Shown piece by piece: positions 1,802 through 18,675 of a DNA stretch of 32,000 nt. The notes beneath the pieces were generated by a model. It saw nothing but the letters and a program-made list of their open reading frames with translations. It made no database searches and was not told the origin of the DNA. Numbering within the stretch: the stretch's first letter is position 1; each line of letters starts with the position of its first letter. The stretch is taken from positions 450,001-482,000 of the forward strand of contig NZ_CP066019.1 of NCBI RefSeq assembly GCF_016127575.1. The letters are read 5' to 3'. The position numbers were made by a program, and so were the translations under genes. This stretch comes from Cupriavidus necator (GTDB taxonomy: Bacteria; Pseudomonadota; Gammaproteobacteria; Burkholderiales; Burkholderiaceae).

Positions 1802-2974
1802 CTAAGCAAATGGTCGAATCGATTTGCTGTAGCCGTTCCGGATGCCTGATGAGAAGAACCCGCCGCACTCCGCCTTTCGCGCACAGGGCTCGCATTCTGG
1901 TGCGTATTCGTTCTTCCAGTCAGAGATGGACTTGACATATGCTGGCTCGACATCCGCATTCACCAAGCAGAGTTGATGGTTATACACAGACGTCTTGAGT
2001 CCATAGCTTCTTAGAATCCCGACAGCCGTACTAAGCTCCGTCTTGTAGTCGGCGGGGTCGATCCAGAGCGCATCCAGGTTCGCGCGGGTGAACCCGGTCA
2101 TTTCCAATCCCATTAGCGCGACGTGGTCGACAAACAGAAGATTCCGGGCAATGAATTCTGAAAGCGCAGGCAGACCTTTATAGGTTTGCTTGTGGACCAC
2201 AACACGAATCTCAACTTTCTGATTCAGGCGTTTCAGATTCAGGATGCCTCGAATTGTTTCATCAAAGGCCCCTTCGGCTTGGACAACGTAGTCATGACGT
2301 GCCGGGTCGGCCGAGTAGACTGGGATGCCTATCATCACATCGGGATGCTGAACTGCTGCATATTGTTCAGCAAACGCCGCGGCGGCGAATGTTCGCCCGT
2401 TCGACAGGATGTGCAGGGAGGTACGTGGTAGCCAGTTCCTAATTTGATGAAGCAGATCGATGAATCCGTCGCCGAACAGCGTTGGTTCTCCGCCTGTAAT
2501 GCCCAGCGAACGCGTGTTCCGCGGAATCAGGCGAACGGTCTCCATGGCCTCGTCCAGCAACCAGCGGTCATCAACCTTCTTCGGTGGCTGCGAACACATC
2601 AAGCAATAGTTGTTGCACTGCTCTGTAAGCAGGATGCTGTTGTGGTTGGACTCCGCCCGGAAAAGCGCTCTGATCCTACCGTCGCCGGTCAAGCTGACAA
2701 CATCGCCCTCAGCCAGGTAAGAGAACTCGTCGGTCAACAGGGTGCAGGGGATGTCATCGGTCAGGCTCGTCGGCCGTTCGTTGAACGCGAAATAGTGAGC
2801 GAAGCCGGTGGGGGCCGGCACATTAGATCGGGACAGGTAAGCCCTTGCCCCCCTCAATGGGAGTGGAAGGGCAGGATTCGTACTGAGGCTGAACTGCCGC
2901 CGAGGTGCCGGCGATTGCGGCTGTGGAGCCTTCTCCTCGGCGAGGCGGATAACGCGTCCTGAAAGTGTTAGCAT
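1802..2974 (-). CDS. hxsC: His-Xaa-Ser system radical SAM maturase HxsC
   Basis: Radical SAM CX3CX2C motif (CNNYCLMC) followed by GITGGEPTL. C-terminal Cys cluster CEPCARKAEC-GG. It is the last gene of the hxsA-D-B-C cassette. I prefer ATG at 2974 (MLTLSGRV...) over the track's GTG at 2986; that ATG overlaps the hxsB stop as ATGCTAA. Confidence 0.85.
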   Translation of the reverse strand: MLTLSGRVIRLAEEKAPQPQSPAPRRQFSLSTNPALPLPLRGARAYLSRSNVPAPTGFAHYFAFNERPTSLTDDIPCTLLTDEFSYLAEGDVVSLTGDGRIRALFRAESNHNSILLTEQCNNYCLMCSQPPKKVDDRWLLDEAMETVRLIPRNTRSLGITGGEPTLFGDGFIDLLHQIRNWLPRTSLHILSNGRTFAAAAFAEQYAAVQHPDVMIGIPVYSADPARHDYVVQAEGAFDETIRGILNLKRLNQKVEIRVVVHKQTYKGLPALSEFIARNLLFVDHVALMGLEMTGFTRANLDALWIDPADYKTELSTAVGILRSYGLKTSVYNHQLCLVNADVEPAYVKSISDWKNEYAPECEPCARKAECGGFFSSGIRNGYSKSIRPFA

Positions 2975-4431
2975 CGATTCACCCACCGCATGAAAATTTC
3001 CCTGGCTGCTTCGTCATTGCGCATCTTATCGAGCAGGTACTTGGTAATCCCCATGACGCGCTTGCAGAAGTCGGACTCCGGCTTCCGTCCAAGAACGTCG
3101 CCATACATGCCATGGTGAAACACAGGGTCGGATCCACACCACGGCTCGAACGCACAATCGCTACACATTGGTGCAGACGCCGTGAAGGAGTCTTCGAGGG
3201 CCGTCAGTAGCGCGTCCGCGGTGAATATTTCCTCGTAACTGTTCTGATGAACATTACCGATGCGGAACGTCGTGTCGCCCATCTCACGCAGCATGCGGCT
3301 CTCGTCAGACGCATAGACGTCACCGTCGTAGTTAAACACGACGGCTGCGATGCCGGCGCCTGCAGGAGTCATCAGATCCACAAAGCCAGGGTCTTCGGCC
3401 GACATCATCTTGGTCAGCAACAGGGTGGAGTAGTACTCGGTGAAGGGCGTTCCTGCCTTGTTGAGGGCGAGGATGTAGTCCATTCCCTCTTTGTAGAATT
3501 CGAGCCACCGTTCGGTGTTGTAGGCCTGAAAGCTCTTCGTCTTGAGCGCAAAGCCGTAGGGGGAGAGATGGCGCAGAAAAATACCGTCGAAGCCATGCTT
3601 GAGGTATTCGTCGATGATGTCGCGGACGCGATTCAGACTTGCCGGCGAAGTGGTCATCAGCGCGGATACCGAGTCGTAGCCCACCATGTCGCGGGCGCGC
3701 TTGAGGCCTGAGACAAAGCGCTCGTGACTGTCCCGACCGGGACGCGGCCGGTTCTTGTTATGCAGGTCCGCCGGGCCATCCAGGGAGGATGACAGGAAGA
3801 TCTTGTGGTCGCGACAGAACTCCAGAATCTCATCCGTGGCCAGCGACAAGGTTGTGGTGATAACAAACTGGAGATCCCGGCCTTCCACTTTGTTTATTTT
3901 CTCAGCCTTTTTCACTACATATCGAATCAGCTCGAAGTTCAGTAATGGCTCACCACCTTGAAACTCAATTTTTATAGCGGGGTTCGGGGAACGGAAAACG
4001 AGGTCCAAAGCCTTGTCCGCTGTCTCCGGTGTCATATCGAAGGCCGCTTTGTTCTCCGACTGGCGAGAGACTTGGCAATACTGGCAACTATGATCGCAGC
4101 GTAACGATGCGACAAATATGTGCAGATTCGTGAAGTTGGAAAGCTTACTAAACTTGGTCCGCGTCTTCAGTGTGAGCAGTTCCAAACTAGCTTCGTCACC
4201 GGCTTCACGGAGGAAATGCCGGGATCTCAGCGTAATGTAGTCGGGGTCGCTAGGACTCAAACGATGCGCTACGAGGTCCTCAAGCTGCCGGCGAGATAAA
4301 AAAGCAAACTCGCCGACGGCATTCGTGGCCACCACATTTTCGTTATCCAGGGCTTCAAACCGAAACGGTAGTAACTGATATCGCCCCGCATTCTTGCTTT
4401 GATAGCTCTCTAGGCTGCGAAACTTATTCAT
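2968..4431 (-). CDS. hxsB: His-Xaa-Ser system radical SAM maturase HxsB (SPASM/twitch-type C-terminus)
   Basis: 487 aa with the CX3CX2C motif CDHSCQYC, the block EFQGGEPLL, and the C-terminal auxiliary-cluster-like motif CSDCAFEPWCGSDP...C. The ATG overlaps the hxsD stop (ATGA at 4428-4431). Confidence 0.85.
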   Translation of the reverse strand: MNKFRSLESYQSKNAGRYQLLPFRFEALDNENVVATNAVGEFAFLSRRQLEDLVAHRLSPSDPDYITLRSRHFLREAGDEASLELLTLKTRTKFSKLSNFTNLHIFVASLRCDHSCQYCQVSRQSENKAAFDMTPETADKALDLVFRSPNPAIKIEFQGGEPLLNFELIRYVVKKAEKINKVEGRDLQFVITTTLSLATDEILEFCRDHKIFLSSSLDGPADLHNKNRPRPGRDSHERFVSGLKRARDMVGYDSVSALMTTSPASLNRVRDIIDEYLKHGFDGIFLRHLSPYGFALKTKSFQAYNTERWLEFYKEGMDYILALNKAGTPFTEYYSTLLLTKMMSAEDPGFVDLMTPAGAGIAAVVFNYDGDVYASDESRMLREMGDTTFRIGNVHQNSYEEIFTADALLTALEDSFTASAPMCSDCAFEPWCGSDPVFHHGMYGDVLGRKPESDFCKRVMGITKYLLDKMRNDEAAREIFMRWVNRC

Positions 4432-4718
4432 TGTTGCAACCCTGTGCGCGAGAACGCGTACGCTAAAATCAGGTTTCTCGCTGCCTCTGTTTCGTTTTTT
4501 ATTTGCAGGCGGAGTTGTTGGTCGAGGAGTTCACGTTTGAAGTTGGCTAGAACGTCTTCCAGTGGTGCTGCGATGCCCCCGACCAATTCAATTTCGCAAA
4601 CTACGGAGGTCGGACTTTGCGAGATCAGCACCGTGAGCCGGTCTATGAATCTGTATGCCGCCTTTTGTACCGCCTCCAGGCAGTAGACGGCGGAATCTAG
4701 TTCCAAACGTGTTGTCAT
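4428..4718 (-). CDS. hxsD: His-Xaa-Ser system protein HxsD (small accessory protein)
   Basis: 96 aa, located between the precursor and maturase genes. It contains ELLDQQLRLQI, which fits the LLNDYxLRE-type motif after which the HxsD family model was named (from memory). Translationally coupled to hxsB. Confidence 0.75.
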   Translation of the reverse strand: MTTRLELDSAVYCLEAVQKAAYRFIDRLTVLISQSPTSVVCEIELVGGIAAPLEDVLANFKRELLDQQLRLQIKNETEAARNLILAYAFSRTGLQQ

Positions 4719-4732
4719 GGGGACCTTGGAGG

Positions 4733-4755
4733 AGCCGACCCACGAGGAGTCGGCT
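4733..4755 (-). promoter_or_regulatory. intercistronic stem-loop between hxsA and hxsD
   Basis: 7-bp stem agccgac (4733-4739) / gtcggct (4749-4755) with a 9-nt loop, inside the 58-nt hxsA-hxsD spacer. No U-tract follows on the minus strand. Confidence 0.4.
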
Positions 4756-4776
4756 ATGAAATGTGTTTGTTTCTGC

Positions 4777-5073
4777 TTAGTACCGGCTGGAGTAGTGCGA
4801 CGAATGCGACCGGTGCGACGAATGTGATGAGTGCGACTGATGCCACGCCATCAGCTTTCCCTCATGGGCGTCCGAGCGCTTCAGGATGAAATTGAAGACG
4901 TCGCCGGCAGAGTCTGTCACTGCGATTCTTTCGAGAGATTTGGCGTCAATCGAAGTGGTCGATGAAGCATCAACCGAATGTGTCGGCGCTTGCGACGGCA
5001 GCTGCGCTGCAGTGGCGCCCTGCGCCGCAAAACCTGCGGCGACTGCCGCAAATGTTTTGAGGAACCCCTTCAT
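4777..5073 (-). CDS. hxsA: His-Xaa-Ser repeat precursor protein HxsA
   Basis: 98 aa. The N-terminus MKGFLKTFAAVAAGFAAQGATAA looks like a signal peptide. The C-terminus reads W-HQS-HSS-HSS-HRS-HSS-HYS-SRY-stop, i.e. six H-x-S repeats. Strong SD (GGGAGA) lies 5 nt upstream of the ATG at 5073. Confidence 0.85.
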   Translation of the reverse strand: MKGFLKTFAAVAAGFAAQGATAAQLPSQAPTHSVDASSTTSIDAKSLERIAVTDSAGDVFNFILKRSDAHEGKLMAWHQSHSSHSSHRSHSSHYSSRY

Positions 5074-7708: not shown

Positions 7709-8019
7709 TGCGAACTCCTATCAAAGTTGGAAGACCCGCCTGATGGATAAAAATGAAGGGTGGCGGGCCAGACAGCGGGGGTACCAAACCGGTCTTCACA
7801 GAGTAATCCGGCCAGCCTTTCGGCTGCCCCGCCCGGCCCGCCAAAAACTGAGGAGACGTGGACGCGCGAACTTGGCCGTATGAGACGGCCGTCTGTAAAG
7901 ATCCGGGTTGGTACGCCCGATCACCGTTGTCTCGGTGATGGCTCCAGTGTTCCCATCTCTGTCGTCTGTGGCGATCAGACGATTCGCAATCTTCCGGCGC
8001 TTCGCTGTCAGGCAGTTGC

Positions 8020-8520
8020 CTAGCGAATCCTGTCGAACCCACCAGCAGCCCAACGCTCTGCGCTGTCCCGCGTCAGCCGAAAGTCGGGCCGCACCTTCAC
8101 AGTCGCCAGCACATCGCCGAAGGAATCCTCAGCCGTGAGCGTGCCAAAGGGCTCGAATTCATCCGGCGTAATGACGAGCTTCACAATCACAGTGCCGGAT
8201 TCAGACTCGATACTGACCTGCTTGTTGAGCTGCGCATGCAATTGCTGCTCATGCCGCCGGATAACCTCTGAAGCCGTCTTGACCAGCGTCTGGTGCGCAG
8301 TGGCATCCAGCGGCTTGGGATCGACCTTGTTTCGCCCCATGGTCCAGGGACCGACCAGCGCGGGCTCGGCGCTGCCGCCGCGGATCATTTCGACTGCCCA
8401 GCCGTCGCCGTCCTCGTTCTTGATGACGCGGGCGGTCCAGCCCTTGTCGCGCCAGAGGCGGGGCTCGTGGATGGCGGTGGATTCGTGCTCGGAAAGGGCG
8501 TCGTCGGTGTGGTGCATCAA
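8020..8520 (-). CDS. hypothetical protein (166 aa)
   Basis: Composition is protein-like (…WTARVIKNEDGDGWAVEMIRGG…). TTG at 8520 and ATG at 8517 are adjacent candidate starts. I recognise no domain. Confidence 0.55.
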   Translation of the reverse strand: MMHHTDDALSEHESTAIHEPRLWRDKGWTARVIKNEDGDGWAVEMIRGGSAEPALVGPWTMGRNKVDPKPLDATAHQTLVKTASEVIRRHEQQLHAQLNKQVSIESESGTVIVKLVITPDEFEPFGTLTAEDSFGDVLATVKVRPDFRLTRDSAERWAAGGFDRIR

Positions 8521-8749
8521 TCTCGTGGTACGGGTCGGGGAACCCGCGAGGATACTATAGGGGCCGACAGGCAGCGTTCGGCCGTGCGTGTGGGCGCCTG
8601 GCAGGTTGCTGAAAGACCGGCCGGCGGCGGGGTTGCTCCCCTCTTAAATGAGTTCCTTCATCAAGCGCTCGACAGTCATCGGTCGATTGGAATTCAGGAG
8701 CAATGCTCGCATTGCGGACGCACCTTCAGGAACATGCCGGAAGGTCATG

Positions 8750-9436
8750 CTATCCCTGATCCTTCTCGGACAGCGCGCTTTCCAGTAGCTCACGTGCCTC
8801 CCTTCCATGAAGCCAAATGCAACGCTTCCATTCTTCGGTGGCTCCGTGCCTTCCTAAATATGCCTCGCGCTCTTCGGCGGTTAAGGATTCCCAGAATGAA
8901 GACCAATAGTTATCCCACCAATATTCAATGTCGCCTTGCAGGAATCCCAGCTTAAGCGGTTCGCTAATCTCTGGAAAGGCGACCCACGGAGGCGGTGGAC
9001 TTGAGTTGGCCACTACTATGCGATCCAACACGGAAGTATCGTTGGTCATCATTGATACTATTGATCCAGAAAATTCATTACTGAACGCAATGGAGATGAA
9101 AAAATCTCCAGCCTCATTGCCGCTGCGTCTTATATACAAGTGCTCATCAACTTTATCGAATCCGTTTTTAATGCCTTCGATAAGCTCATGTACCTTATTC
9201 GACTCCAGTTGAAAGTGAGCGTAAAAAGCATTTATACCCGTTCCGGGTAATAAGCTGGAAATCTCAGGGTACCTAGAAGGCCTCTTTTCAGTCGCTGATA
9301 TTGGCACCATATCTAGCGGACGAGAAAATAAACCTTTCAATTCTTCCAGCGAGCGGCCGAAGCGTGCTCGGAGGGCTCGATTCCGCTCCTCGGCGATACG
9401 CCTGTGAGTCAACATGTCGCGCAATTTCTTGAGCAC
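8750..9436 (-). CDS. hypothetical protein (228 aa), AT-rich gene with a Trp-rich C-terminal region
   Basis: GTG at 9436 is preceded by GGAG with an 8-nt spacer. The C-terminal block PPPWVAFPEISEPLKLGFLQGDIEYWWDNYWSSFWESLTAEEREAYL looks like a folded domain that I cannot name. Confidence 0.6.
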   Translation of the reverse strand: MLKKLRDMLTHRRIAEERNRALRARFGRSLEELKGLFSRPLDMVPISATEKRPSRYPEISSLLPGTGINAFYAHFQLESNKVHELIEGIKNGFDKVDEHLYIRRSGNEAGDFFISIAFSNEFSGSIVSMMTNDTSVLDRIVVANSSPPPPWVAFPEISEPLKLGFLQGDIEYWWDNYWSSFWESLTAEEREAYLGRHGATEEWKRCIWLHGREARELLESALSEKDQG

Positions 9437-9628: not shown

Positions 9629-11992
9629 CTAGGCGCGGCTGAACATCGACTTCCTGATAATGGCATGCACGCCCCAGTTGCCATTCACCACCTGCGTGAT
9701 ACCAAAATCCACTGCAACAGAGATCAGCGCAACCGCCTCATCTTCACTCAGCCCCTTGACCGACATAAGGAAGCGGCGTGTCTTGCGGAAGGCGTCGCGC
9801 ATGGCGTCGTCCAGGGTGGACTTCAGGTAGATATGGCTCTGCGCCATCTGGCCCAGTTCAGCCAGGTGGTTGGGCGAGCTGAAGCCATGCAGGATCCATT
9901 CGTCGGCGGTTTCCACCAGCGGGTAGCTCAGGTCGGCGAAGGGAGCGTCGCGGTCGATCATGGTGCTCTTGTGCAGGACGAGCTGGAAGTCACCGGTCAG
10001 CGAGCATTCGATGGCCGTGCCGCACAGCTCGGAGTCTCCCTGCGAGGCATGGGGATCGCCAATCGACAGCAGGGCGCCCGGCACGGCTACCCTGAGGTAG
10101 ACGCTGGCGCCCCGGGTGACGCGCCAGTTGTCCAGGTTGCCGGCGAAGCTGGAGGGCGGGATGGAGTCGATCAGGCCGTCCTGCGCCGGCGCCACGGCGA
10201 TGACGCCGAAGTGGGGGCGGACCGGTATCTCGATATCGCGCAGCACGTCGTAGTTCTTGACGATGGTGTCGTGGTCGACCGGCACGCCGGGATAGTCGAT
10301 GGTCGGGTGCAGCACGCCGAACGGATCGCGCTGCGGCGTCCAGCGGAAGTTGTAGACCGCGCGCGCACGGCTGTCGGCGCGTTCGCAATCGATCTCGAAG
10401 ACGGTGACCACTTCGCGCTCGCGCGGCTCGGTCAGCATGTCGCGGTAATGAAAGCCCCACCAGGTCGCGGCGTTGCTGCCGAAGGCCCTGCCGGCAAAGC
10501 GCGGGTTGCAGCACGGGCGCGGGCGCACGTCCAGGATGCGCACCTCCAGCACATCGCCGGGCATGGCGCCGCGCACCGCGACCGGGCCGGTGCAGATATG
10601 CACGCCAAAGCCTTCGCCGGCGCCGCGGCCGTAGACCGACGCATCGATGGGGCCCGCGCCGCGCCGGTTGACGTTCTTCTGCTCCGCGGTCCAGTGAAAG
10701 ACGCTTTCGGCGCCGGCGTCGCCGTCGATCATGCGTTCCCGGTCGTCAGAGGCGTGCTGCGTCAGGGTTTCGATGGTGACGGTGTCGCCGGGCATGACCT
10801 CAAGCACGGGCGGCAGGTCGTGGCTGAGATAGCCCCAGTGCACGGTCTTGTCCGTGGCCTGCAGCCAGTGGTGCCGGCCTTCCGGGCGGGCGGCGTGCGA
10901 GCGCGCCTGGGTGATGGGGACGATGGTGGGCGCCGCTTGCAGGCGCGCAGCAGGGCCATCGTTCGCGGGCGCGCCATGGCTAGCGGGAGCCCGCTTCGCA
11001 TTGGCCGGAAGCCCGCGGGAGACATTCTGCGGTGGGCGATGCTCGGGCGTGTTCGCGGTCTGCTCACGGTAGGCGCGGGGCGAGATCCCGAACTGTTCGC
11101 GAAACGCGTGGCTGAAGTGCGAAGGGTCGTTGAAGCCCCAGCGATAGCAGATGTCGGAGACCGAGAGCTTGTCGTACTGGTGGTTCGCCAGGTCGGCCCG
11201 GCATCGCTCGAGCCGGCTGGTGCGCAGGTAGGCGGAAAAGCTGCTGCCGGATTTCTCGAAGAGCTTCTGCAGGTAGCGGGCCGACATGCGCTCGTCCGCG
11301 GCGATGGCGGCGAGGCTGAGTTCCGGCTCGGCAAGGCGTGCGTCGATGCGGCTGCAGACGCGCGCAAAAACGGCCGCGCGCGAGGGCGTCATGTCCGGCG
11401 GTGCGCTGGGCTGGCTGTCGGCCAGCGCGGCGTCAAGGCAGGCGGTGATGGTGTTGTCGAAGGGCTGGATGGCCTTGGCGTTTGCGGACACGATGGTGTC
11501 GAAGCTGGCCGCCATGGACTGGAGCAGGCGGGCAAACAGTTCAGCGGCGTCGCCGCTCAGCACCAGCGCGGAGCGAGGCAAGGGGGCCGTGATGCGTGCG
11601 CTCAGCAATGCCTGGCCGATATGCACGATCAGCATGCGGAAGCTGGTGGCCAGGGCCAGCCTGCGGGCGGCGTGTTCCGGCACGCAGACCACCTGCCCCG
11701 GCCGCAGCGGTTCACGCAGTTCCGGCGCAGCGAGGTGCGCTTCGCCTTCGGTCAGCATCAGCAGCATCAGGCCGCGGCCGTCGCCGCTGGTGATGGCCAG
11801 CGTCTGGGGGACCGATGCAATGCAGGTCAGCTCGATGCCCGCGGGGGTGGTCCGCGACTCGATCGTGCCGTGCAGGGTGTGATCGGCGCACAGGCTTTCG
11901 CAATGCAGGCGTGCGGCGCGGAGTTCGTCACGCCAGGCTGCGCCGCGCCGGTTGTGTGGATAGGCTTCGGTGGAAAAACGCAAAAGGTGCAA
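9629..11992 (-). CDS. AraC-family regulator (effector domain + HTH) fused in-frame to an acetamidase/formamidase-family domain
   Basis: One uninterrupted frame. The AraC HTH reads …RYLQKLFEKSGSSFSAYLRTSRLERCRADL…ICYRWGFNDPSHFSHAFREQFGISPRAYRE and ends ~11060. A Pro/Ala/Arg-rich linker spans 11059-10865. The amidase domain (TVHWGYL…GDVLEVRILDV…NLDNWR…SIGDPHASQGDSELCGTAIE…FGITQVV) runs to the stop at 9629. Start reassigned to TTG at 11992 (AGGGAGG + 5 nt), because the track's start at 12199 overlaps the upstream XapX gene. Confidence 0.7.
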   Translation of the reverse strand: MHLLRFSTEAYPHNRRGAAWRDELRAARLHCESLCADHTLHGTIESRTTPAGIELTCIASVPQTLAITSGDGRGLMLLMLTEGEAHLAAPELREPLRPGQVVCVPEHAARRLALATSFRMLIVHIGQALLSARITAPLPRSALVLSGDAAELFARLLQSMAASFDTIVSANAKAIQPFDNTITACLDAALADSQPSAPPDMTPSRAAVFARVCSRIDARLAEPELSLAAIAADERMSARYLQKLFEKSGSSFSAYLRTSRLERCRADLANHQYDKLSVSDICYRWGFNDPSHFSHAFREQFGISPRAYREQTANTPEHRPPQNVSRGLPANAKRAPASHGAPANDGPAARLQAAPTIVPITQARSHAARPEGRHHWLQATDKTVHWGYLSHDLPPVLEVMPGDTVTIETLTQHASDDRERMIDGDAGAESVFHWTAEQKNVNRRGAGPIDASVYGRGAGEGFGVHICTGPVAVRGAMPGDVLEVRILDVRPRPCCNPRFAGRAFGSNAATWWGFHYRDMLTEPREREVVTVFEIDCERADSRARAVYNFRWTPQRDPFGVLHPTIDYPGVPVDHDTIVKNYDVLRDIEIPVRPHFGVIAVAPAQDGLIDSIPPSSFAGNLDNWRVTRGASVYLRVAVPGALLSIGDPHASQGDSELCGTAIECSLTGDFQLVLHKSTMIDRDAPFADLSYPLVETADEWILHGFSSPNHLAELGQMAQSHIYLKSTLDDAMRDAFRKTRRFLMSVKGLSEDEAVALISVAVDFGITQVVNGNWGVHAIIRKSMFSRA

Positions 11993-12089
11993 TTGAACCT
12001 CCCTGGCATCACGCTGCAACAGCGAAAACGGGCGGACATTGCTGTCCGCCGCGCATCCAAAGCATTTCCTGCGAAGGCCGGGCCCTCCG

Positions 12090-12281
12090 CTAGCCGAACA
12101 GCAACTGCCCCCGCATCGCGGCCACCAGTACGAATCCCGCGAACGTGCCAAAGATGGCGAAGATCCCGCCGAGCACGTTCGGGGCCGGTATCGGTGCACG
12201 TACCGCAGTGTAGATAACGCCGGTCACCAAGCCAACGGCTGCGGCCTGCAGCTCGGTGCTGCCCAATGCAATTTCCACCAT
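12090..12281 (-). CDS. XapX-domain (DUF1427-like) small membrane protein, copy 2
   Basis: 63 aa: MVEIALGSTELQAAAVGLVTGVIYTAVRAPIPAPNVLGGIFAIFGTFAGFVLVAAMRGQLLFG. Two hydrophobic helices flank a P-I-P-A-P-N-V turn. GGGGA precedes the ATG at 12281; ATG at 12299 is an alternative start. It is the internal part of track ORF 12090-12620. Confidence 0.65.
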   Translation of the reverse strand: MVEIALGSTELQAAAVGLVTGVIYTAVRAPIPAPNVLGGIFAIFGTFAGFVLVAAMRGQLLFG

Positions 12282-12555: not shown

Positions 12556-13581
12556 TCAGCCCTTGTCCTTGGGCGGGAAGATCGAGCGCGGCATGGTGCA
12601 ATGGATGCCCTGGGTGCCATCGACGACCTGCGTCACGCCGAAGTCAGCCGAGACGCTCATGAGCGAATAGGCATCGTCGCGCGAGAGTCCCTGTTGCTCG
12701 GTCAGCAGGTGGATCATGTCGCGGGCCGCGTTCTTGCCGGCTTCATCCAGGTCTTCATGGAAGCCGTGGACGACCCAGCAATCCGGCGTTTCCAGCAGCG
12801 GCGAGGGGAAGTGGAAGTCCTTGCGCAGGACCACCTGGAACAGGACGTTCAATGAGGCCTCGATGGCGGTGCCGCTGATCTCGCCGTCGCCTTGCGAGAT
12901 ATGCGGGTCGCCGATCGAGAACAGCGCGCCGTCGACCTGGACCGGGTAGTACATGGTGGCGCCCGCGCCGATGCGCCAGTTGTCGATATTGCCGCCATGC
13001 AGGCCGGGCTCGACGGTGGTGACGCGGCCGCGCGCGTCGGGCGCGACGCCAGCGGTGCCCAGGTGCGGGCGCACGGGAACCCGCACACCGGCCAGCGCCG
13101 GCTGCCTGCAGCATTCCCGCTCATCCACGAGCTTGCCGGGGATGGTCATCTTGCCGGGGTAGTCGAAGGCGTACAGGGCATGCGCGGTGTTGGAGCGCTG
13201 GTCCAGCTCATAGATGGTGACCCGCTCCTTCTCGAACTCTTTGTACAGCTGGCCCCAGTGCGCCGCGGCATTCGCCCCGAAACGGAAGCGCGGAATCATC
13301 TGCAGGTAGCGCACCTCCAGCACGTCGCCGGGCTTGGCGTCTTCGACATAGATAGGGCCGGTCATGATGTGCACGCCGGGGTTGCGGTCGTCGTGGGGAA
13401 TCGCCCGGAAGATCTCGCGAATGGCGTCGTCCATCATCAGGTCGGGGGCATCGCCGGCATGGTGGGTTACCGCTTCGGCGCGGATGAGGTCGCCGCTTTT
13501 CACGGTCAGGGCGGGCGCCTTGGCGGCATCGAAGTAGCCCCAGTGGACGGTCTCGGGGCGGGCGGGCAGGTCGTGCAGCAT
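12556..13581 (-). CDS. acetamidase/formamidase family protein
   Basis: 341 aa with ETVHWGYFD, PGDVLEVRYLQ, GGNIDNWR, SIGDPHISQGDGEISGTAIE and DFGVTQVVDG. It is a paralog of the C-terminal domain of the 9629-11992 product. Confidence 0.9.
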   Translation of the reverse strand: MLHDLPARPETVHWGYFDAAKAPALTVKSGDLIRAEAVTHHAGDAPDLMMDDAIREIFRAIPHDDRNPGVHIMTGPIYVEDAKPGDVLEVRYLQMIPRFRFGANAAAHWGQLYKEFEKERVTIYELDQRSNTAHALYAFDYPGKMTIPGKLVDERECCRQPALAGVRVPVRPHLGTAGVAPDARGRVTTVEPGLHGGNIDNWRIGAGATMYYPVQVDGALFSIGDPHISQGDGEISGTAIEASLNVLFQVVLRKDFHFPSPLLETPDCWVVHGFHEDLDEAGKNAARDMIHLLTEQQGLSRDDAYSLMSVSADFGVTQVVDGTQGIHCTMPRSIFPPKDKG

Positions 13582-13852
13582 GTTGTCTCCTATGTTTTCT
13601 TGCAGCCGTGTCCGCAGCCGTTCACCCGGTGAGCGGCTGGATTCGATGAGGTAATCAGGGACACTGGCTATGCGTGGCAGGCGGGGTATGCCTGGTACCG
13701 CGCGGCAGTCCTGCTGGCGCCGCGCGGTGAGTCAATACTAGGGACAGGGCGTTGCGGGGCAGTAGGGCGATTCACCCCAAACTCTTGTGTTGCTGCGTAC
13801 TAAGGTAAACCCGCTGCACGATGCCGGGTCGCGGCGGGCTGTTAATTCCTGG

Positions 13853-13899
13853 TTGACATCGTGTCAACGATCTATGGAATTGTCGACAACGCCTTGACA
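13853..13899. promoter_or_regulatory. cluster of TTGACA/TGTCAA palindromic half-sites (candidate operator or promoter)
   Basis: TTGACAtcgTGTCAA at 13853-13867, TTGTCGACAA at 13880-13889 and TTGACA at 13894-13899. The cluster lies ~270-320 nt upstream of the amidase operon start and ~150 nt downstream of the cqsS stop. Confidence 0.3.
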
Positions 13900-14014
13900 G
13901 TGCGGAAGCCCGGCAGAGCCAGGGGCTGATGCTGAGGATGGCAGGGGCCCTGGGCATGGATGCCGCGCAGGTTGCGGGGCTGAAGGCCGCCGGGGGTGGT
14001 GTAAGTCGCTGTGC

Positions 14015-14037
14015 GGCGCCGGCGCAATGCCGGCGCC
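14015..14037 (-). terminator. GC-rich hairpin immediately downstream of cqsS
   Basis: Perfect 9-bp stem ggcgccggc (14015-14023) / gccggcgcc (14029-14037) with a 5-nt loop, 8 nt after the cqsS stop codon. There is no clear U-tract on the minus strand. Confidence 0.4.
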
Positions 14038-14045
14038 TGCTATTG

Positions 14046-15374
14046 CTATTGCGATGGCGCCTCGGGCCATTTCCCCTTGCGGGGAAGGCGCATATCGAAC
14101 TCGGTGAACACGTGCTCCTCGGAGCGGCAGCTGATGCTTGCCCCCCAGCTGTTCAGCACCTTCTGGCAAAACGCCAGTCCGATGCCGGTGCCGCGATGTG
14201 CCGGGTAAGAGAAGAAGGGCTGGAACATCCGGGCCAGCACTTGCGGCGGCACGCCCGTGGCGGTGTCGCGGAACACCACATGGACGGCGTCGGGCCGGAC
14301 CTCGCAGCGGATATGGATGGTGCCCTTGCCGGCCCGCTTGGTCGCTTCCAGCGCGTTCTTCAGCAAGTTGGTCGTGACCAGCCCGAACAACTGGGCGTTG
14401 CCCATCACGTAGGCGGGGCCAGGCAGGTCGACGGTGACCAGATCCAGGTCGCTGTGCTCGAACGGAAACCGGCCGACAGCGTCGCGGATCACACCGCCCA
14501 GTTCGAACAGCTCCTGCGTGGCGTTGTCCGGGTTCTTGGAGTTGGCGACCAGCAGTTCAATGCTGTTGCTAATATGGGCCAGGTCTGATTCCATCCGGGC
14601 CACGGCCTGCATCAGGCCGTCGCGCTGCGGCGTGTCCTGGTCCAGGGCTGCCGGCAGCCGCGCCTTGAGGCCCCTGGCAGTCATGGCCAGGCTGGTCAGC
14701 GGCGTGCGCAGTTCGTGCGCGACGGTGGCCAGCGCGGCGGCCATCCCGCGCCGCTTCTGTTCGGCCAGCAGCTGGCGGTCCATCTTGATCACCACCAGCA
14801 CCGCGATGACAAAGCCGATCACCGGCAGCTGCAGCAGTACCGGCTCCCACGGGATTCCGCCCATGGAGTTGCCCGCCAGCACGAACAGCGCAATGGCTGC
14901 TGCGGCCCCTGAGAACAAGGCAATGGTCGCGAACGCGGTGTTGAAGTGATACAGGATCACCACCGCGATGATGACCGATTCGGCCCACACCATGGAGCCG
15001 CCATTCTCCAGGTAGAAGAAGATAAAGGCGAACGGCAGGCCTATGGTAATGGCAAAGAGTGCATAGGGCGGCAGCCAGCGCCGGTCCGAGAAGGCGGAGG
15101 CGAACAGCAGCGGCACGAACAGCGCGGTGCAGACCAGGCGCAGCCAGAGGTTTTCATAGGGCTGCGGGAAGATGTAGGACCAGATCACGTAGTACAGCGG
15201 GTGTCCGATCACGCCCAGCGCCCCCACCATCTGGATCCGGCGCAGCCGGATGACGCTCTCCTCGTCCAGCAGCGTAGCCCGCGCGGCGGTCTCGAATACA
15301 GTCTGCCACGCATCGCGGGCGACGCCGGCAAGTGAGGTGCGGCCGTCTTCCGCTTGCGCTACCTTTGCATCCAT
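14046..15374 (-). CDS. cqsS: CqsS/LqsS-type alpha-hydroxyketone autoinducer sensor histidine kinase (no receiver domain)
   Basis: The polytopic N-terminus (…GALGVIGHPLYYVIWSYIFPQPYENLWLRLVCTALF…) aligns by eye with V. cholerae CqsS (…GMLGFPAYYFIWEYWFPQSYENLGLRCAAAVLF…). H-box is HELRTPL, N-box is LLKNALEA, G-box is GTGIGL. The protein ends ~30 aa after the G-box. Start set at ATG 15374, 9 nt after the cqsA stop; the track's start at 15461 overlaps cqsA. Confidence 0.8.
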   Translation of the reverse strand: MDAKVAQAEDGRTSLAGVARDAWQTVFETAARATLLDEESVIRLRRIQMVGALGVIGHPLYYVIWSYIFPQPYENLWLRLVCTALFVPLLFASAFSDRRWLPPYALFAITIGLPFAFIFFYLENGGSMVWAESVIIAVVILYHFNTAFATIALFSGAAAAIALFVLAGNSMGGIPWEPVLLQLPVIGFVIAVLVVIKMDRQLLAEQKRRGMAAALATVAHELRTPLTSLAMTARGLKARLPAALDQDTPQRDGLMQAVARMESDLAHISNSIELLVANSKNPDNATQELFELGGVIRDAVGRFPFEHSDLDLVTVDLPGPAYVMGNAQLFGLVTTNLLKNALEATKRAGKGTIHIRCEVRPDAVHVVFRDTATGVPPQVLARMFQPFFSYPAHRGTGIGLAFCQKVLNSWGASISCRSEEHVFTEFDMRLPRKGKWPEAPSQ

Positions 15375-15382
15375 CTCCAGGA

Positions 15383-16675
15383 CTACTCCTCGCGGGAGCC
15401 TGCCAGCGACCCGCTTGTGGGATTTTGAGACTTGCGCCGGGCCCGGCGCGTCGAGGACCATTCATCCAGCCGGACTTCGTCGCGGATGCTGGCGAGCACG
15501 CCGACCAGGCGGTCGATTTCATTGGCGGCAAGTTTCGCATGCAGCGTAAGTCGCATCAATGCCCGATTCTTCGGTGTTGCCGGCGCACAGAATACCGCGC
15601 CGAAGATCCCGCGGCTCTGCAGCGCATCGCGCAGCACCTTGACTTGCGGCTCGGTTCCCGCCTCCAGGCCGATGATCTGCTCGGAGCCTTCGCTGATGTT
15701 GTAGCCCAGTTCGGCAATCGCAGCCCGGGTGTCGCGAGTGATGGCGTGCAGGCGCGCACGGCGCTCATCCGCCGTGGCGACGAAATCCGTCACGGCATCG
15801 AACCACGCAACCTCATGGCGCAGCAGCCCGGAACTGAAAATGGCCGGCCGGGACTCAACCGCGAAGAAGTCCTTGAAGTCGGTCGAACAGGCAACATAGC
15901 CGGCGCGGCCGGCAAACGCCTTGGCCAGCGAGGCCGTGCGGAAGTGTACGCGCTCGGACAGCCCGAGCGCGCGCACCAGGCCGCCGCCAGACGGCCCATG
16001 GGTGCCGAGCGAGTGCGACTCATCCACCACCAGCACGCAGCCAGACGCCTCCGCCAGGTCGACATAGTCCTCCAGCGGCGCCACGCTGCCGGTGGTGCTG
16101 TAGACCGAGTCCACCATGATCACGCCCGGGCCGAAGCGCTCAAGCTGGCGGCGCACGTGCTCGCAATCGTTGTGGCGCACCGGCACGGCCTGCGCGCCCG
16201 CGGCGATGATGCCCTCCCACAGGGAGGCATGCCCGTTCATGTCGATATAGACCGGAATGCCGGGGCCGGCAATGCACTGCACCAGGCCGACGTTGGCGGC
16301 CCAGCCGGACTGGGCGATCAGCCCGTCCTCGGCCTGCATCAGGTCTGCGATCTTGCGCTCGACGCGCCGCTGCGGGGTGTCGCCGTGCTGGAACACGGAC
16401 GACATCAGCAACTCCGGCTCCTCATTGAGGAAGGCCCGCGCCTGCGCCTGTACCAGAGAGGTCTCGCCGAGCAGGCAGAGATAGTCGTTGCTGCTCAGGT
16501 GCAGTGCATCGGGCCCGGGCGTGCGTCCGTGAAGCAGATGATCGCCGCCCCAGAGCTTGCCCATCCGCTCGTCGAAATGTTGTGCCATCCGCGCCGTGAT
16601 CCATGGCGGCAGCGTGGGGGCTTTGGCGCGAGAGGCGTGGCGCATCGAGTGCGGAGGCTCGGCTTCGGAGAACAT
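15383..16675 (-). CDS. cqsA: CqsA/LqsA-type autoinducer synthase (PLP-dependent alpha-oxoamine synthase family)
   Basis: Blocks SQSGWAANVGLVQ, VDSVYSTTGSVAPL, VDESHSLGTHGPSGGGL, HFRTASLAKAFAGRAG, PAIFSSGLL, EQIIGLEAG and FGAVFCAPATPKNRALMRLTL match V. cholerae CqsA almost block for block (from memory). Start reassigned to ATG 16675 (SD GAAGGAAAG); the upstream part of the track ORF looks non-coding. Confidence 0.9.
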   Translation of the reverse strand: MFSEAEPPHSMRHASRAKAPTLPPWITARMAQHFDERMGKLWGGDHLLHGRTPGPDALHLSSNDYLCLLGETSLVQAQARAFLNEEPELLMSSVFQHGDTPQRRVERKIADLMQAEDGLIAQSGWAANVGLVQCIAGPGIPVYIDMNGHASLWEGIIAAGAQAVPVRHNDCEHVRRQLERFGPGVIMVDSVYSTTGSVAPLEDYVDLAEASGCVLVVDESHSLGTHGPSGGGLVRALGLSERVHFRTASLAKAFAGRAGYVACSTDFKDFFAVESRPAIFSSGLLRHEVAWFDAVTDFVATADERRARLHAITRDTRAAIAELGYNISEGSEQIIGLEAGTEPQVKVLRDALQSRGIFGAVFCAPATPKNRALMRLTLHAKLAANEIDRLVGVLASIRDEVRLDEWSSTRRARRKSQNPTSGSLAGSREE

Positions 16676-16983
16676 CGGCTTTCCTTCTACAGGTCGGGTA
16701 ATCAGTGAGATCGGTGGCAAGGCTCTGCATGGCGGTTGCGGCAAAAAGCTGCCGTCCGCGCGCGACGCGGCCGCACCCAGTCCTTCCGGCGAGGTGCCAT
16801 TGCTGACAAGTCGGGGGAGTCCTGTTGACGTAGCGACCACTGTGCCAGCCTTACTCAGCGATTGTGACCGGACTTCCACCAATCCAACGTCCGTTTGGAG
16901 TGGGGGGTGCCGGGTTGAGACAGCCGCGTCGTGGCCGCACCTTCGCCGGCCGATAGGCCGATTTCTCACTGTAAAATGCCTTT

Positions 16984-17003
16984 AGCATCACTTATGTGAT
17001 GCT
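16984..17003. promoter_or_regulatory. palindrome in the long cqsA upstream region
   Basis: agcatcac-ttat-gtgatgct is a perfect 8-bp inverted repeat with a 4-nt spacer, ~310 nt upstream of the cqsA ATG. A second hairpin (ccggtccg / cggaccgg) follows within ~20 nt. Confidence 0.3.
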
Positions 17004-17379
17004 TGCGCTACCTGCTGCGCCGGTCCGTGAAGCCCGGACCGGGCGGGCTCGCGCTTGGCGGGACCTTGTCAGGCCCGGGACTGCCGAATGCTCATCATCA
17101 GTTTTGGTGAAGAATGCCCTTTTTGCACGCCCTGTTTACAGGCAGGCGCCTGCGGCAGCGCGCCATAGCCAGGAAGCGGGGCAACATGGGACTTGGCACC
17201 GAGGGCGGGAGACAAGGGGACTGCCAGGTACGCAGGTTGCCGCCAGCGTGACCTGGCTGGCGGCGTGTGGGGGAGGGGGGCTTCGGAGAGAGGGCGCTGC
17301 CCATGGCGCTTCCAGGCTGGTGCCTTTGGCGCAGGGGTACAGGGCAGCAGCGTGCTGCGACGCTTGTGTCGGGGGCGCC

Positions 17380-18675
17380 TTACGCCTGGCCTGCCTCGTC
17401 GATCAGCGCGGAAACGTCGACGATATACATCTGCCGCTCGGAGTCGTGGATCGAATCGATGCACACGTGCCGCCCGTCGCGGCTCCAGCGTGGATGCAGG
17501 TCGCAGCGGTTTTCCTTCTTCAGGACCGGGCTGGTGTAGTAACTGCCCAGGTCATGGCGCACGCCCTGCGCCATGTCGAAGAGAAACAGCACGCGCTCGT
17601 TGGTGTGCGCGTCGGGATAGGTGTCGCTGAGCAGCCAGCGCTTGTTGGTGGGCGAGAAGGTCATGTGACCGTTCTCGGTCAGGATGCCGTCGCCGATGAC
17701 TTCAACCTTGCCGCCGGGGCTGTCGTGGTAGAGGTGGTAGTGGATGCTGCCCGCGTGCGGTCCCCACACGATGATATTGCTATCGTCTTGCCAGAGCGGA
17801 TGGGAGATCTGGTACTCGGACTTCTCATAGTCGAAGGTGCCGACCGCGTTCGGATCGAAATCTTCGGCAAGCTGCGGCAGCGGATGGTCGGAGCATTCGA
17901 GCAAGCGCATGTCGCTGCCGTCCGGATTGACCGTGATCAGCCGGTGCAGGAAGCAGGTTTCGTCCTCGACCCGTTCGGTCCAGCGGTGCAGCAGCAGCAC
18001 GCGCGATGAGGACGGGTTAATTTCGATGTGGCTGACCCAGTGGATGGCCTTGTCCATCGAGGCGCGCGGATTGAAGTTGCGCAGGTCAGCGTAGCTCACG
18101 ACCAGGCGCGTCTGGCCGGTGCGCAGGTCCATGTAGTGGATGCCGTCGTCGGCGGGCGCATTGTCCAGCGCGGGCTGGGTGCCGTGGTCGCTGTAGCCGA
18201 TGGTCTGGTGCGTGACGTAGAGGCGGCGGTAGTCCACGCACAGTGCATAGCGGCTGTCCGGCGCGACCACATAGACCGGCATCGGCAACTGGCGCGCTTC
18301 ACCGGTATCGAGGTTGAAGATGGTGGCGCCCAGGTTGGGATAGAAGGCCTTCACGTCCTGGGTGCGGCAGTTGTAGACAAGCTGGCGCTGTGCTTCCCCA
18401 TCCAGCCATTGCAGCTGCGAGCCCATCTGCCAGTTCCAGGCGGTAGTTACCCCCACGCGATGGAAGCGGTCGTTGTCCTGCAGGTCGAAGTAGCCGATCT
18501 CGGCAACCAGGTCGGGGGTCAGGTCGGCATCGGCCATCGGCACGCGCTGCGCCAGCAGGTAGCGGCCGCTGCGGTCCCAGTTGGTCTTGTTGTAGTAGCC
18601 GAAGAAGTGATGAGGCTCGCCCGCGCCGACGCGGCGGCAGGGCAGCGGCTTGGCAATGATGCGTTCCGTTGACAT
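17380..18675 (-). CDS. beta-propeller-like protein of unknown function (TolB/PD40 or oligogalacturonate-lyase-like fold suspected)
   Basis: 431 aa from ATG 18675 (MSTERIIAKPLP…HHFFGYYNKTNWDRSGRYLL…). It has repeated hydrophobic-strand/Asp-Gly patterns (…NPDGSDMRLL…, …WSRDGRHVCIDS…) and no signal peptide. The track ORF 17380-19863 runs on, in a shadow frame, across the upstream Bug gene. Confidence 0.7.
   Translation of the reverse strand: MSTERIIAKPLPCRRVGAGEPHHFFGYYNKTNWDRSGRYLLAQRVPMADADLTPDLVAEIGYFDLQDNDRFHRVGVTTAWNWQMGSQLQWLDGEAQRQLVYNCRTQDVKAFYPNLGATIFNLDTGEARQLPMPVYVVAPDSRYALCVDYRRLYVTHQTIGYSDHGTQPALDNAPADDGIHYMDLRTGQTRLVVSYADLRNFNPRASMDKAIHWVSHIEINPSSSRVLLLHRWTERVEDETCFLHRLITVNPDGSDMRLLECSDHPLPQLAEDFDPNAVGTFDYEKSEYQISHPLWQDDSNIIVWGPHAGSIHYHLYHDSPGGKVEVIGDGILTENGHMTFSPTNKRWLLSDTYPDAHTNERVLFLFDMAQGVRHDLGSYYTSPVLKKENRCDLHPRWSRDGRHVCIDSIHDSERQMYIVDVSALIDEAGQA

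Follow-up and report, generated by a model that had tools for sequence, protein, structure and literature searches.

The closest described systems that use α-hydroxyketones as signals are the Lqs system of Legionella pneumophila, the CqsA/CqsS system of Vibrio, the Jqs system of Janthinobacterium and Duganella, and the hydroxyketone system of Cupriavidus taiwanensis. The Lqs system encompasses LqsA, the kinases LqsS and LqsT and the regulator LqsR, with LAI-1 (3-hydroxypentadecan-4-one) as signal, and for both LqsS and LqsT inhibition of the kinase by the ligand was established (PMC5289986). In Vibrio, the signal is CAI-1 (3-hydroxytridecan-4-one) and CqsS is a hybrid kinase of ~690 aa, the C-terminal receiver domain of which signals to LuxU and LuxO. 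Within the order Burkholderiales, the Jqs system consists of jqsA, jqsS and jqsR and uses JAI-1; the jqsA regulon and a promoter motif were published for Janthinobacterium and Duganella (PMC3566124; PMC5080296), and JqsA was reported to be most similar to a protein of Cupriavidus necator N-1 (PMC3566124). An lqsA/lqsS cluster of Ralstonia eutropha was already listed in a review in 2012 (PMC3376566). As far as Wakimoto et al. (2020; J Nat Prod 83:1876) is cited in PMC10653808, the system of C. taiwanensis works, and its deletion has little effect on growth, motility, biofilm or exopolysaccharide. With the jqsA regulon published and, according to this citation, a functional system in C. taiwanensis, the initial annotation, which took both signal and regulon to be undefined in Burkholderiales, is outdated on this point. 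For C. necator, no description of the signal structure, the phosphorylation partner of the kinase or the regulon was found in the literature examined; as this is an industrial strain, regulation by cell density could have practical relevance.

The window analyzed here, i.e., the whole stretch of 32 kb, has a GC content of ~65% and is closest to Cupriavidus necator, in agreement with the high-GC betaproteobacterial background assumed before. Its minus strand carries two intact, full-length genes in the interval 14046-16675, which most probably (at roughly 0.88) constitute a two-gene α-hydroxyketone quorum-sensing module of the Legionella Lqs/Janthinobacterium Jqs type on a C. necator-like replicon. 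The pair as such is already known, as it is named by the NCBI standard annotation and has appeared in reviews since 2012, and since database annotation and published descriptions of it already exist, the locus is ordinary. The upstream gene cqsA (15383..16675, 430 aa) encodes a cqsA/lqsA-type PLP-dependent α-hydroxyketone autoinducer synthase; it starts at 16675 with ATG, preceded by GAAGGAAA, and ends with TAG. The downstream gene (14046..15374, 442 aa, start at 15374) encodes an LqsS/JqsS-type sensor histidine kinase, and a GAGGAG upstream of its start overlaps the end of cqsA. The genes were described as being 9 nt apart on the same strand; the strand is correct, but direct reading of the sequence from the cqsA stop codon to the kinase start codon gives a spacer of 8 nt (15375..15382, minus strand). 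Co-transcription of both genes is likely. An alternative in-frame kinase start at 15461 would result in a longer form overlapping cqsA by 79 nt; however, 15374 is the likelier start, since kinase homologues start at the equivalent position and the gene call in C. necator CP068435 keeps the 8-nt spacing. The GC content at third codon positions (0.79 for cqsA, 0.85 for the kinase) indicates that both frames are coding, and the long ORFs opposite them on the plus strand were rejected as shadow ORFs. Both genes are under purifying selection, with dN/dS of 0.07-0.20 for cqsA and 0.18-0.24 for the kinase.

Assignment of the synthase to the CqsA/LqsA clade follows from comparison of its sequence with family models and solved structures. 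On NF005526, the curated CqsA-specific NCBIfam model of α-hydroxyketone autoinducer synthases, it scores 615.7 bits (cutoff 428) over model positions 5-407 of 407, whereas the sister models for BioF (212.8 bits, cutoff 426), Kbl (171.7, cutoff 460) and SPT (180.9, cutoff 500) and also the ALAS model are missed by far. The grouping with BioF/Kbl enzymes that had been named as a possible refutation is therefore not what is found. The match to V. cholerae CqsA noted from the letters was borne out, as the best PDB match is the V. cholerae CqsA structure 3hqt (336.6 bits, E 1.9e-99); the structures 3hqt, 2wk8 and 2wk7 reach ~335 bits, compared to at most 126 bits for structures of SPT, KBL, AONS and ALAS. 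TASLAK, which contains the PLP-binding lysine K252, and VDESHSLGTHGP align identically with the CqsA structures. The enzyme shares 99% identity with the C. necator protein named 'quorum-sensing autoinducer CAI-1 synthase', 58% with JqsA of Janthinobacterium/Duganella and 41% with V. campbellii CqsA.

The kinase possesses six predicted membrane helices (approximately residues 48-197, from the hydropathy profile), followed by a HisKA domain (30.6 bits) with the phospho-acceptor H220 in the motif AHELRTPL and a HATPase_c domain (67 bits, residues 329-432); no other Pfam domain was found, and the protein ends 10 residues past the ATPase domain. No receiver domain is present in the kinase by Pfam and none was found in the 32-kb window by tblastn with four receiver sequences. 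All Burkholderiales homologues have 373-473 aa, with the exception of three fragments. The kinase is thus classified by its domain composition as LqsS/JqsS-type and not as a Vibrio hybrid CqsS, so that from the proposed CqsA/CqsS-type pair the identity as α-hydroxyketone synthase and sensor holds and the kinase type does not. Its alignment with V. campbellii CqsS, the gene of which adjoins cqsA, is end-to-end and collinear (residues 46-434, E 5e-48), and the membrane sensor signature of CqsS/LqsS noted before is present as YYVIWSYIFPQPYENLWLR, including the motif FPQPYENL. The N-terminal 177 aa alone match Vibrio chromosome-2 records (E 1e-13 to 1e-15, tblastn against PLSDB, which files some Vibrio second chromosomes as plasmids); by this, genuine Vibrio CqsS was recovered. 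A protein search with the sensor domain only returned five fragments and no Vibrio or Legionella proteins; no Pfam match was obtained in the sensor domain, a precomputed PF20968 tag on one homologue was not reproduced, and a sequence search for solved CqsS/LqsS sensor structures yielded generic kinase cores only.

Positions governing ligand specificity were transferred via V. campbellii W109, S112, F165, F167, F171, F175 and H199, which correspond to the V. cholerae numbers plus 5 (PMC3376566). The ligand-contact Trp, Ser and Phe align with those of V. campbellii CqsS, and FPQxYE, W130, S133, P184, F188 and H220 do not vary between Cupriavidus and Vibrio homologues. In the receptor, helix 4 keeps the Vibrio-type Trp and Ser (W130, S133) and helix 6 has a Legionella-like gate of I186, F188 and V192. 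The position setting the tail length is occupied by I196, a weak hint at a ligand tail of at least C10. In place of DxGxG, the G1 box has DTATG in this protein and in some Cupriavidus homologues; other homologues have DTGPG or DTGAG.

As the kinase has no receiver domain, a separate response regulator is needed; none is encoded in the 32-kb window. In Oxalobacteraceae and in Imbroritus the regulator gene adjoins the kinase gene: in Imbroritus, Collimonas, Janthinobacterium and Massilia it is located directly 3' of the kinase gene with cqsA adjacent, and in a Pseudoduganella locus it abuts the kinase gene with no cqsA found. In about 50 Cupriavidus loci, the LqsR-family regulator is encoded more than 8 kb away from any cqsA or cqsS. 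In C. necator A5-1 it is located between pntB and an rlmL-like gene on a 4.3-Mb scaffold, and regulators with intact phospho-acceptor are present in C. necator SHC 2-3, A5-1 and EM36. None was found on Cupriavidus chromids in PLSDB; a genome scan places the regulator on contigs of main-chromosome size. The unlinked lqsR was described as a rearrangement in 2023, with the regulator gene close to the phc cluster in Cupriavidus and directly beside it in Ralstonia, and a rewiring of the network was proposed (PMC10653808). As kinase and LqsR-family regulator co-occur throughout Cupriavidus and are ancestrally linked in other genera, we infer that the kinase acts on LqsR in Cupriavidus.

By homology, the module would work as follows. 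CqsA would use an acyl-CoA and a small amino donor with PLP to form an amino-ketone or enamino-ketone, from which a 3-hydroxy-4-ketone signal would arise and leave the cell by diffusion. As long as cell density is low, the kinase is expected to autophosphorylate on H220 and to phosphorylate the unlinked LqsR/PhcX-type regulator on the aspartate in VVDYSMPQMDG. In dense populations, binding of the signal would inhibit the kinase, as was shown for CqsS, LqsS and LqsT, and the regulator would lose its phosphate.

Upstream of cqsA, the non-coding region 16676..17379 (704 bp, read on the minus strand) presumably bears the promoter; searches of it yielded neither a sigma-70-like site nor an Rfam family or JAI-1 motif, and a related C. 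necator locus has no gene call at the corresponding place. Consensus scans for promoters and terminators around the pair were uninformative and no RNA family was matched. At the 3' end of the kinase gene, alignment with two C. necator loci revealed a strain-specific insertion of ~215 bp (13840..14055, minus strand), which is absent in the nearest relatives and supplies the last few kinase codons and the stop codon. The palindrome TTGACACGATGTCAA at 13853-13867 inside this insertion is the sole match to the JAI-1 promoter motif in the window; it was rejected as a regulatory site of the system, as such a match arises by chance in 29% of shuffles and the insertion is strain-specific. The insertion probably does not belong to the conserved system. 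The pair is directly followed by formamidase genes. A metabolic output had been suggested from the adjacent amidase and catabolic islands; this receives no support, since the pair has other neighbours in C. pauculus and C. necator and adjacency to amidase genes is therefore not conserved. The linkage of cqsA and the kinase gene is kept in C. necator, C. pauculus, Imbroritus, Duganella and V. campbellii.

The formamidase neighbours, together with the generic Aminotran_1_2 family as the only Pfam match of the synthase, would fit a metabolic α-oxoamine synthase (BioF-, Kbl- or SPT-like) acting with amidase and catabolic genes, with the kinase as an unrelated nutrient sensor. The 615.7 bits on the CqsA model versus sub-cutoff scores on all sister models and a synthase-kinase pairing that extends from Vibrio to Cupriavidus, which the amidase neighbours do not follow, leave hardly any probability for this, and by these comparisons it can be regarded as effectively refuted. 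Just as improbable is that the module is a decaying, non-functional remnant in this strain. The insertion that replaces the last kinase codons compared to other C. necator strains, the alanine in place of the first glycine of the G1 box and the weak phenotypes in C. taiwanensis, as far as these are related in PMC10653808, could be taken as signs of decay, but both frames are intact and of full length with dN/dS of 0.07-0.24, the insertion affects only residues beyond the HATPase domain, which ends at residue 432, and all family-invariant catalytic and sensor residues are present.

Somewhat more weight, still within the range of the improbable, is given to the possibility that the hydroxyketone is made and sensed but that the kinase is rewired off the LqsR-family regulator, for instance to a regulator of the phc system (methyl 3-hydroxymyristate). 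The regulator gene is unlinked at all Cupriavidus loci examined, PMC10653808 places it near phc and proposes a rewiring, and Ralstonia solanacearum lacks cqsA yet retains the regulator and a kinase homologue. Against this, kinase and regulator co-occur throughout Cupriavidus with the phospho-acceptor motif kept, no other partner is encoded near the kinase, and in C. necator A5-1 a scan of ORFs up to 8 kb from the regulator gene showed no phc-type kinase or methyltransferase. The Lqs/Jqs-type module with an LqsR-family regulator probably encoded elsewhere in the genome is preferred.

The Ralstonia solanacearum species complex has no synthase but retains PhcX/LqsR and an orphan receptor of the CqsS/LqsS type, which is intact. 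A tentative reading, considered rather doubtful, is that in the Cupriavidus/Ralstonia lineage the receptor and the LqsR-type regulator lost their coupling to the synthase gene and were integrated into the phc network; by extension, R. solanacearum could eavesdrop on hydroxyketones from neighbouring bacteria such as Cupriavidus, R. insidiosa or Oxalobacteraceae. The 2023 paper on PhcX stated that Lqs sensor kinases are missing from the R. solanacearum complex (PMC10653808), and the orphan receptor appears to have been overlooked there. The Ralstonia kinase homologue was also considered as PhcK and this was rejected, as PhcK (RSc1351) has four membrane helices and is another protein. The published Shk primers have no match in the Ralstonia loci examined, which are from another strain. 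As R. solanacearum is a wilt pathogen, its orphan receptor may merit separate attention.

Compared with the known systems, the pair shares features with each of them. As to Vibrio CqsA/CqsS, the synthase matches V. cholerae CqsA, and the sensor domain likewise contains FPQPYENL and residues equivalent to W104, S107 and F162. In contrast to the hybrid CqsS, the kinase stops after the ATPase domain, and the genes are arranged in tandem, whereas cqsA and cqsS are convergent in Vibrio. Legionella Lqs has a synthase of the same PLP-dependent family, a six-helix kinase without receiver and, as in the genus Cupriavidus, a separate LqsR-family regulator, and the helix-6 gate resembles I166/F168/A172 of LqsS (PMC3376566). 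However, helix 4 has a Trp (W130) where LqsS has a Ser, and Legionella encodes its components in an lqsA-lqsR-hdeD-lqsS cluster, while here the window contains no regulator gene, and in Cupriavidus generally this gene is unlinked. The Jqs system comes from the same order and has a kinase without receiver, with identities of 58% for the synthase and 38% for the kinase. There, jqsA is divergent from jqsS-jqsR and the intergenic region carries TTGA-N6/7-TCAA (PMC5080296), whereas here cqsA and the kinase gene follow each other in tandem at 8 nt, no such motif is found upstream of cqsA and no regulator adjoins the kinase. The system of C. taiwanensis, although from another species, belongs to the same genus, has the same two-gene module with unlinked lqsR and, as cited in PMC10653808, was reported to be functional.

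The initial annotation placed a same-strand synthase and kinase pair at 14046-16675, and this observation was confirmed. The gene cqsA (16675..15383, minus strand) encodes 430 aa, starting with ATG directly preceded by GAAGGAAA and ending with TAG, and is followed by the sensor kinase gene (15374..14046, minus strand; 442 aa). The reported distance of 9 nt is off by one, as the spacer between the cqsA stop and the kinase start comprises 8 bases (15375-15382), and the gene call of the closely related C. necator locus CP068435 shows the identical 8-nt gap. An alternative in-frame kinase start at 15461 would create a 79 nt overlap with cqsA; in the alignment, kinase homologues start at the equivalent of 15374. 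GC at third codon positions reaches 0.79 in the cqsA frame and 0.85 in the kinase frame. The synthase-receptor pair is intact and tightly linked, and its dN/dS of 0.07-0.24 shows selective constraint. Long plus-strand ORFs across 14046-16675 were rejected as shadow ORFs, which are usual for DNA of 65% GC.

The synthase covers the entire NCBIfam model NF005526 for alpha-hydroxyketone autoinducer synthases with 615.7 bits (cutoff 428) and stays below the cutoffs of the models for BioF (212.8 vs 426), serine palmitoyltransferase (180.9 vs 500) and Kbl (171.7 vs 460). Its top match among solved structures is V. cholerae CqsA (336.6 bits, E 1.9e-99), while all other alpha-oxoamine synthase structures reach at most 126 bits. 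The PLP-lysine motif TASLAK, with K252 as PLP lysine, and the block VDESHSLGTHGP are identical in the alignment with V. cholerae CqsA. By model scores and solved structures, the enzyme thus groups with CqsA/LqsA and not with BioF/Kbl, and its designation as CqsA-type stands.

The pair is real and already known. The synthase shares 99% identity with a C. necator protein that databases list as CAI-1 synthase, and close kinase homologues carry the name CqsS at JGI. Ralstonia eutropha was reported among the bacteria with an lqsA-lqsS cluster, lqsR being missing from most such clusters (PMC3376566), Cupriavidus is listed in PMC5289986, and JqsA was found to be closest to a C. necator N-1 protein (PMC3566124). 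In PMC10653808, the system is described as functional in C. taiwanensis (citing Wakimoto et al., 2020). A claim of novelty can thus not be upheld, nor can the claim that no regulon is defined in Burkholderiales, as the jqsA regulon was published (PMC5080296).

Downstream of the pair lie formamidase-family genes, among them a stand-alone formamidase (12556-13581), together with two small membrane ORFs that are paralogous. These adjoin an AraC-family regulator (AraC_binding_2 and HTH_18) running in frame into an acetamidase/formamidase domain (9629-12199, minus strand), which is a single 787-aa gene in the CP068435 gene call. Upstream are an unassigned 431-aa protein (17380-18675, minus strand), a TctC-family binding protein and a LysR regulator. 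The gene order around the pair is common to the window and CP068435, whereas the C. pauculus pair lies between TetR, IspA, RPE65-family and other unrelated genes. Therefore, the amidase adjacency is not conserved and offers no basis for the metabolic output suggested initially. The 431-aa protein has no Pfam or NCBIfam match, and its place upstream of cqsA is conserved in C. necator. On the chromid of C. metallidurans CH34, part of it recurs at 82% DNA identity, with no match there to the cqsA/cqsS part of the query. It probably belongs to the adjacent LysR and TctC unit.

Compared with the closest C. necator loci, the window carries an insertion of ~215 bp (about 13840-14055), which replaces the 3' end of the kinase gene (last codons and stop codon) and contains the perfect palindrome TTGACACGATGTCAA (13853-13867). 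In almost all Oxalobacteraceae loci, the spacer between jqsA and jqsS contains the Janthinobacterium promoter motif TTGA-N6/7-TCAA. The window lacks this motif upstream of cqsA and has a single instance of it, inside the insertion; at least one match occurs in 29% of shuffles.

The left, lower-GC (53-60%) part of the window holds a His-Xaa-Ser (Hxs) radical-SAM peptide cassette (1802-5073, minus strand) with HxsC (1802-2986; TIGR03977, 422.7 bits), HxsB (2968-4431; TIGR03978, 640.6 bits), a 96-aa ORF (4428-4718) and a precursor-like 98-aa ORF (4777-5073) with the C-terminal end WHQSHSSHSSHRSHSSHYSSRY, all on the minus strand. A C4 antisense RNA match (RF01695; 7756-7848, minus strand; 64.8 bits, gathering score 45), surrounded by ORFs without family matches in the lower-GC segment, could be a relic of a mobile element or prophage.

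In Duganella HH101 and Imbroritus primus, the gene immediately behind the kinase gene encodes an LqsR-type regulator of 336-346 aa. An alignment of these two regulators, used to scan one genome per species, returned 80 loci. In Janthinobacterium, Collimonas, Massilia, Pseudoduganella and Imbroritus the kinase abuts the regulator wherever the latter has a kinase neighbour, nearly always with cqsA alongside; neither cqsA nor the kinase was found within 8 kb of the regulator in any of ~50 Cupriavidus loci. This reproduces the reported dissociation of phcX/lqsR from lqsA and lqsS in Cupriavidus (PMC10653808). In C. necator A5-1 a 4.3-Mb scaffold carries the regulator, which is flanked by pntB and an rlmL-like gene and keeps the acceptor motif VVDYSMPQMDG. 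The genus possesses an intact LqsR-type regulator unlinked to the pair. In PLSDB, LqsR-family genes were also observed on conjugative Legionella plasmids (~136-150 kb) and on plasmids of Massilia, Rhodanobacter, Dyella, Burkholderia and Polaromonas; therefore, hydroxyketone-sensing components may be plasmid-borne and mobile.

If the pair works like its characterised counterparts in Vibrio and Legionella (PMC3376566, PMC5289986), the synthase would convert acyl-CoA to an amino-ketone precursor, which would yield a 3-hydroxy-4-ketone. At low cell density the kinase would phosphorylate the regulator, and accumulated signal would inhibit the kinase. That the kinase is rewired to a different regulator has a low probability. 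A purely metabolic role of the pair is likewise improbable and is contradicted by the family-model scores and solved-structure matches of the synthase, just as the intact frames and purifying selection contradict a decayed module, which is also considered unlikely.

The kinase has six membrane segments by hydropathy (residues 48-197), and its N-terminal 177 residues alone match Vibrio second-chromosome records (E 1e-13 to 1e-15). Among these is a V. campbellii locus in which a 690-aa hybrid kinase, the Vibrio CqsS, adjoins cqsA; the window kinase is collinear with it over its own residues 46-434 (28% identity, E 5e-48). The proposed membrane sensor signature was borne out, as the FPQxYE block is invariant from Cupriavidus to Vibrio, together with W130, S133, P184, F188 and H220, in an alignment of 11 sequences from Cupriavidus, Ralstonia, Imbroritus, Collimonas, Duganella, Gallionella and Vibrio. 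An orphan kinase of this type, 55-58% identical to the window kinase and with all invariant sensor residues kept, was observed in the R. solanacearum species complex (8001-9299 in both loci L001 and L002; proteins P0029-P0038). It follows sspB in L001 and is preceded by unrelated genes in L002; neither cqsA nor a cqsA remnant is present at either locus. Lqs sensor kinases were stated to be missing from this complex (PMC10653808). Its identification as PhcK was rejected, PhcK being RSc1351.

Ligand-specificity positions (PMC3376566) were transferred via V. campbellii numbering, i.e., V. cholerae numbering +5, an offset confirmed by V. campbellii W109, S112, F165, F167, F171, F175 and H199. W130 and S133 are Vibrio-like, the Trp being replaced by Ser in Legionella LqsS, and the LqsS gate I166/F168/A172 is similar to I186, F188 and V192 of the window kinase. 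At the tail-length position the window kinase has I196, V. cholerae C170, V. harveyi F175 and LqsS T175/L176 (PMC3376566). These residues (W130, S133, I186, F188, V192, I196) would allow no more than a weak ligand prediction.

HisKA and HATPase_c are the only Pfam domains of the kinase, which ends ten residues past the ATPase domain, and no receiver domain was found in the 32-kb window by Pfam on the main ORFs or by tblastn with four receiver sequences. The 120 homologues listed, essentially all from Burkholderiales, have 373-473 aa except for three fragments. The initial interpretation is partly supported. The family assignment as a CqsA/CqsS-type pair holds and the Vibrio CqsS subtype does not: in contrast to the hybrid Vibrio CqsS, the kinase is therefore built like Legionella LqsS or Janthinobacterium JqsS.
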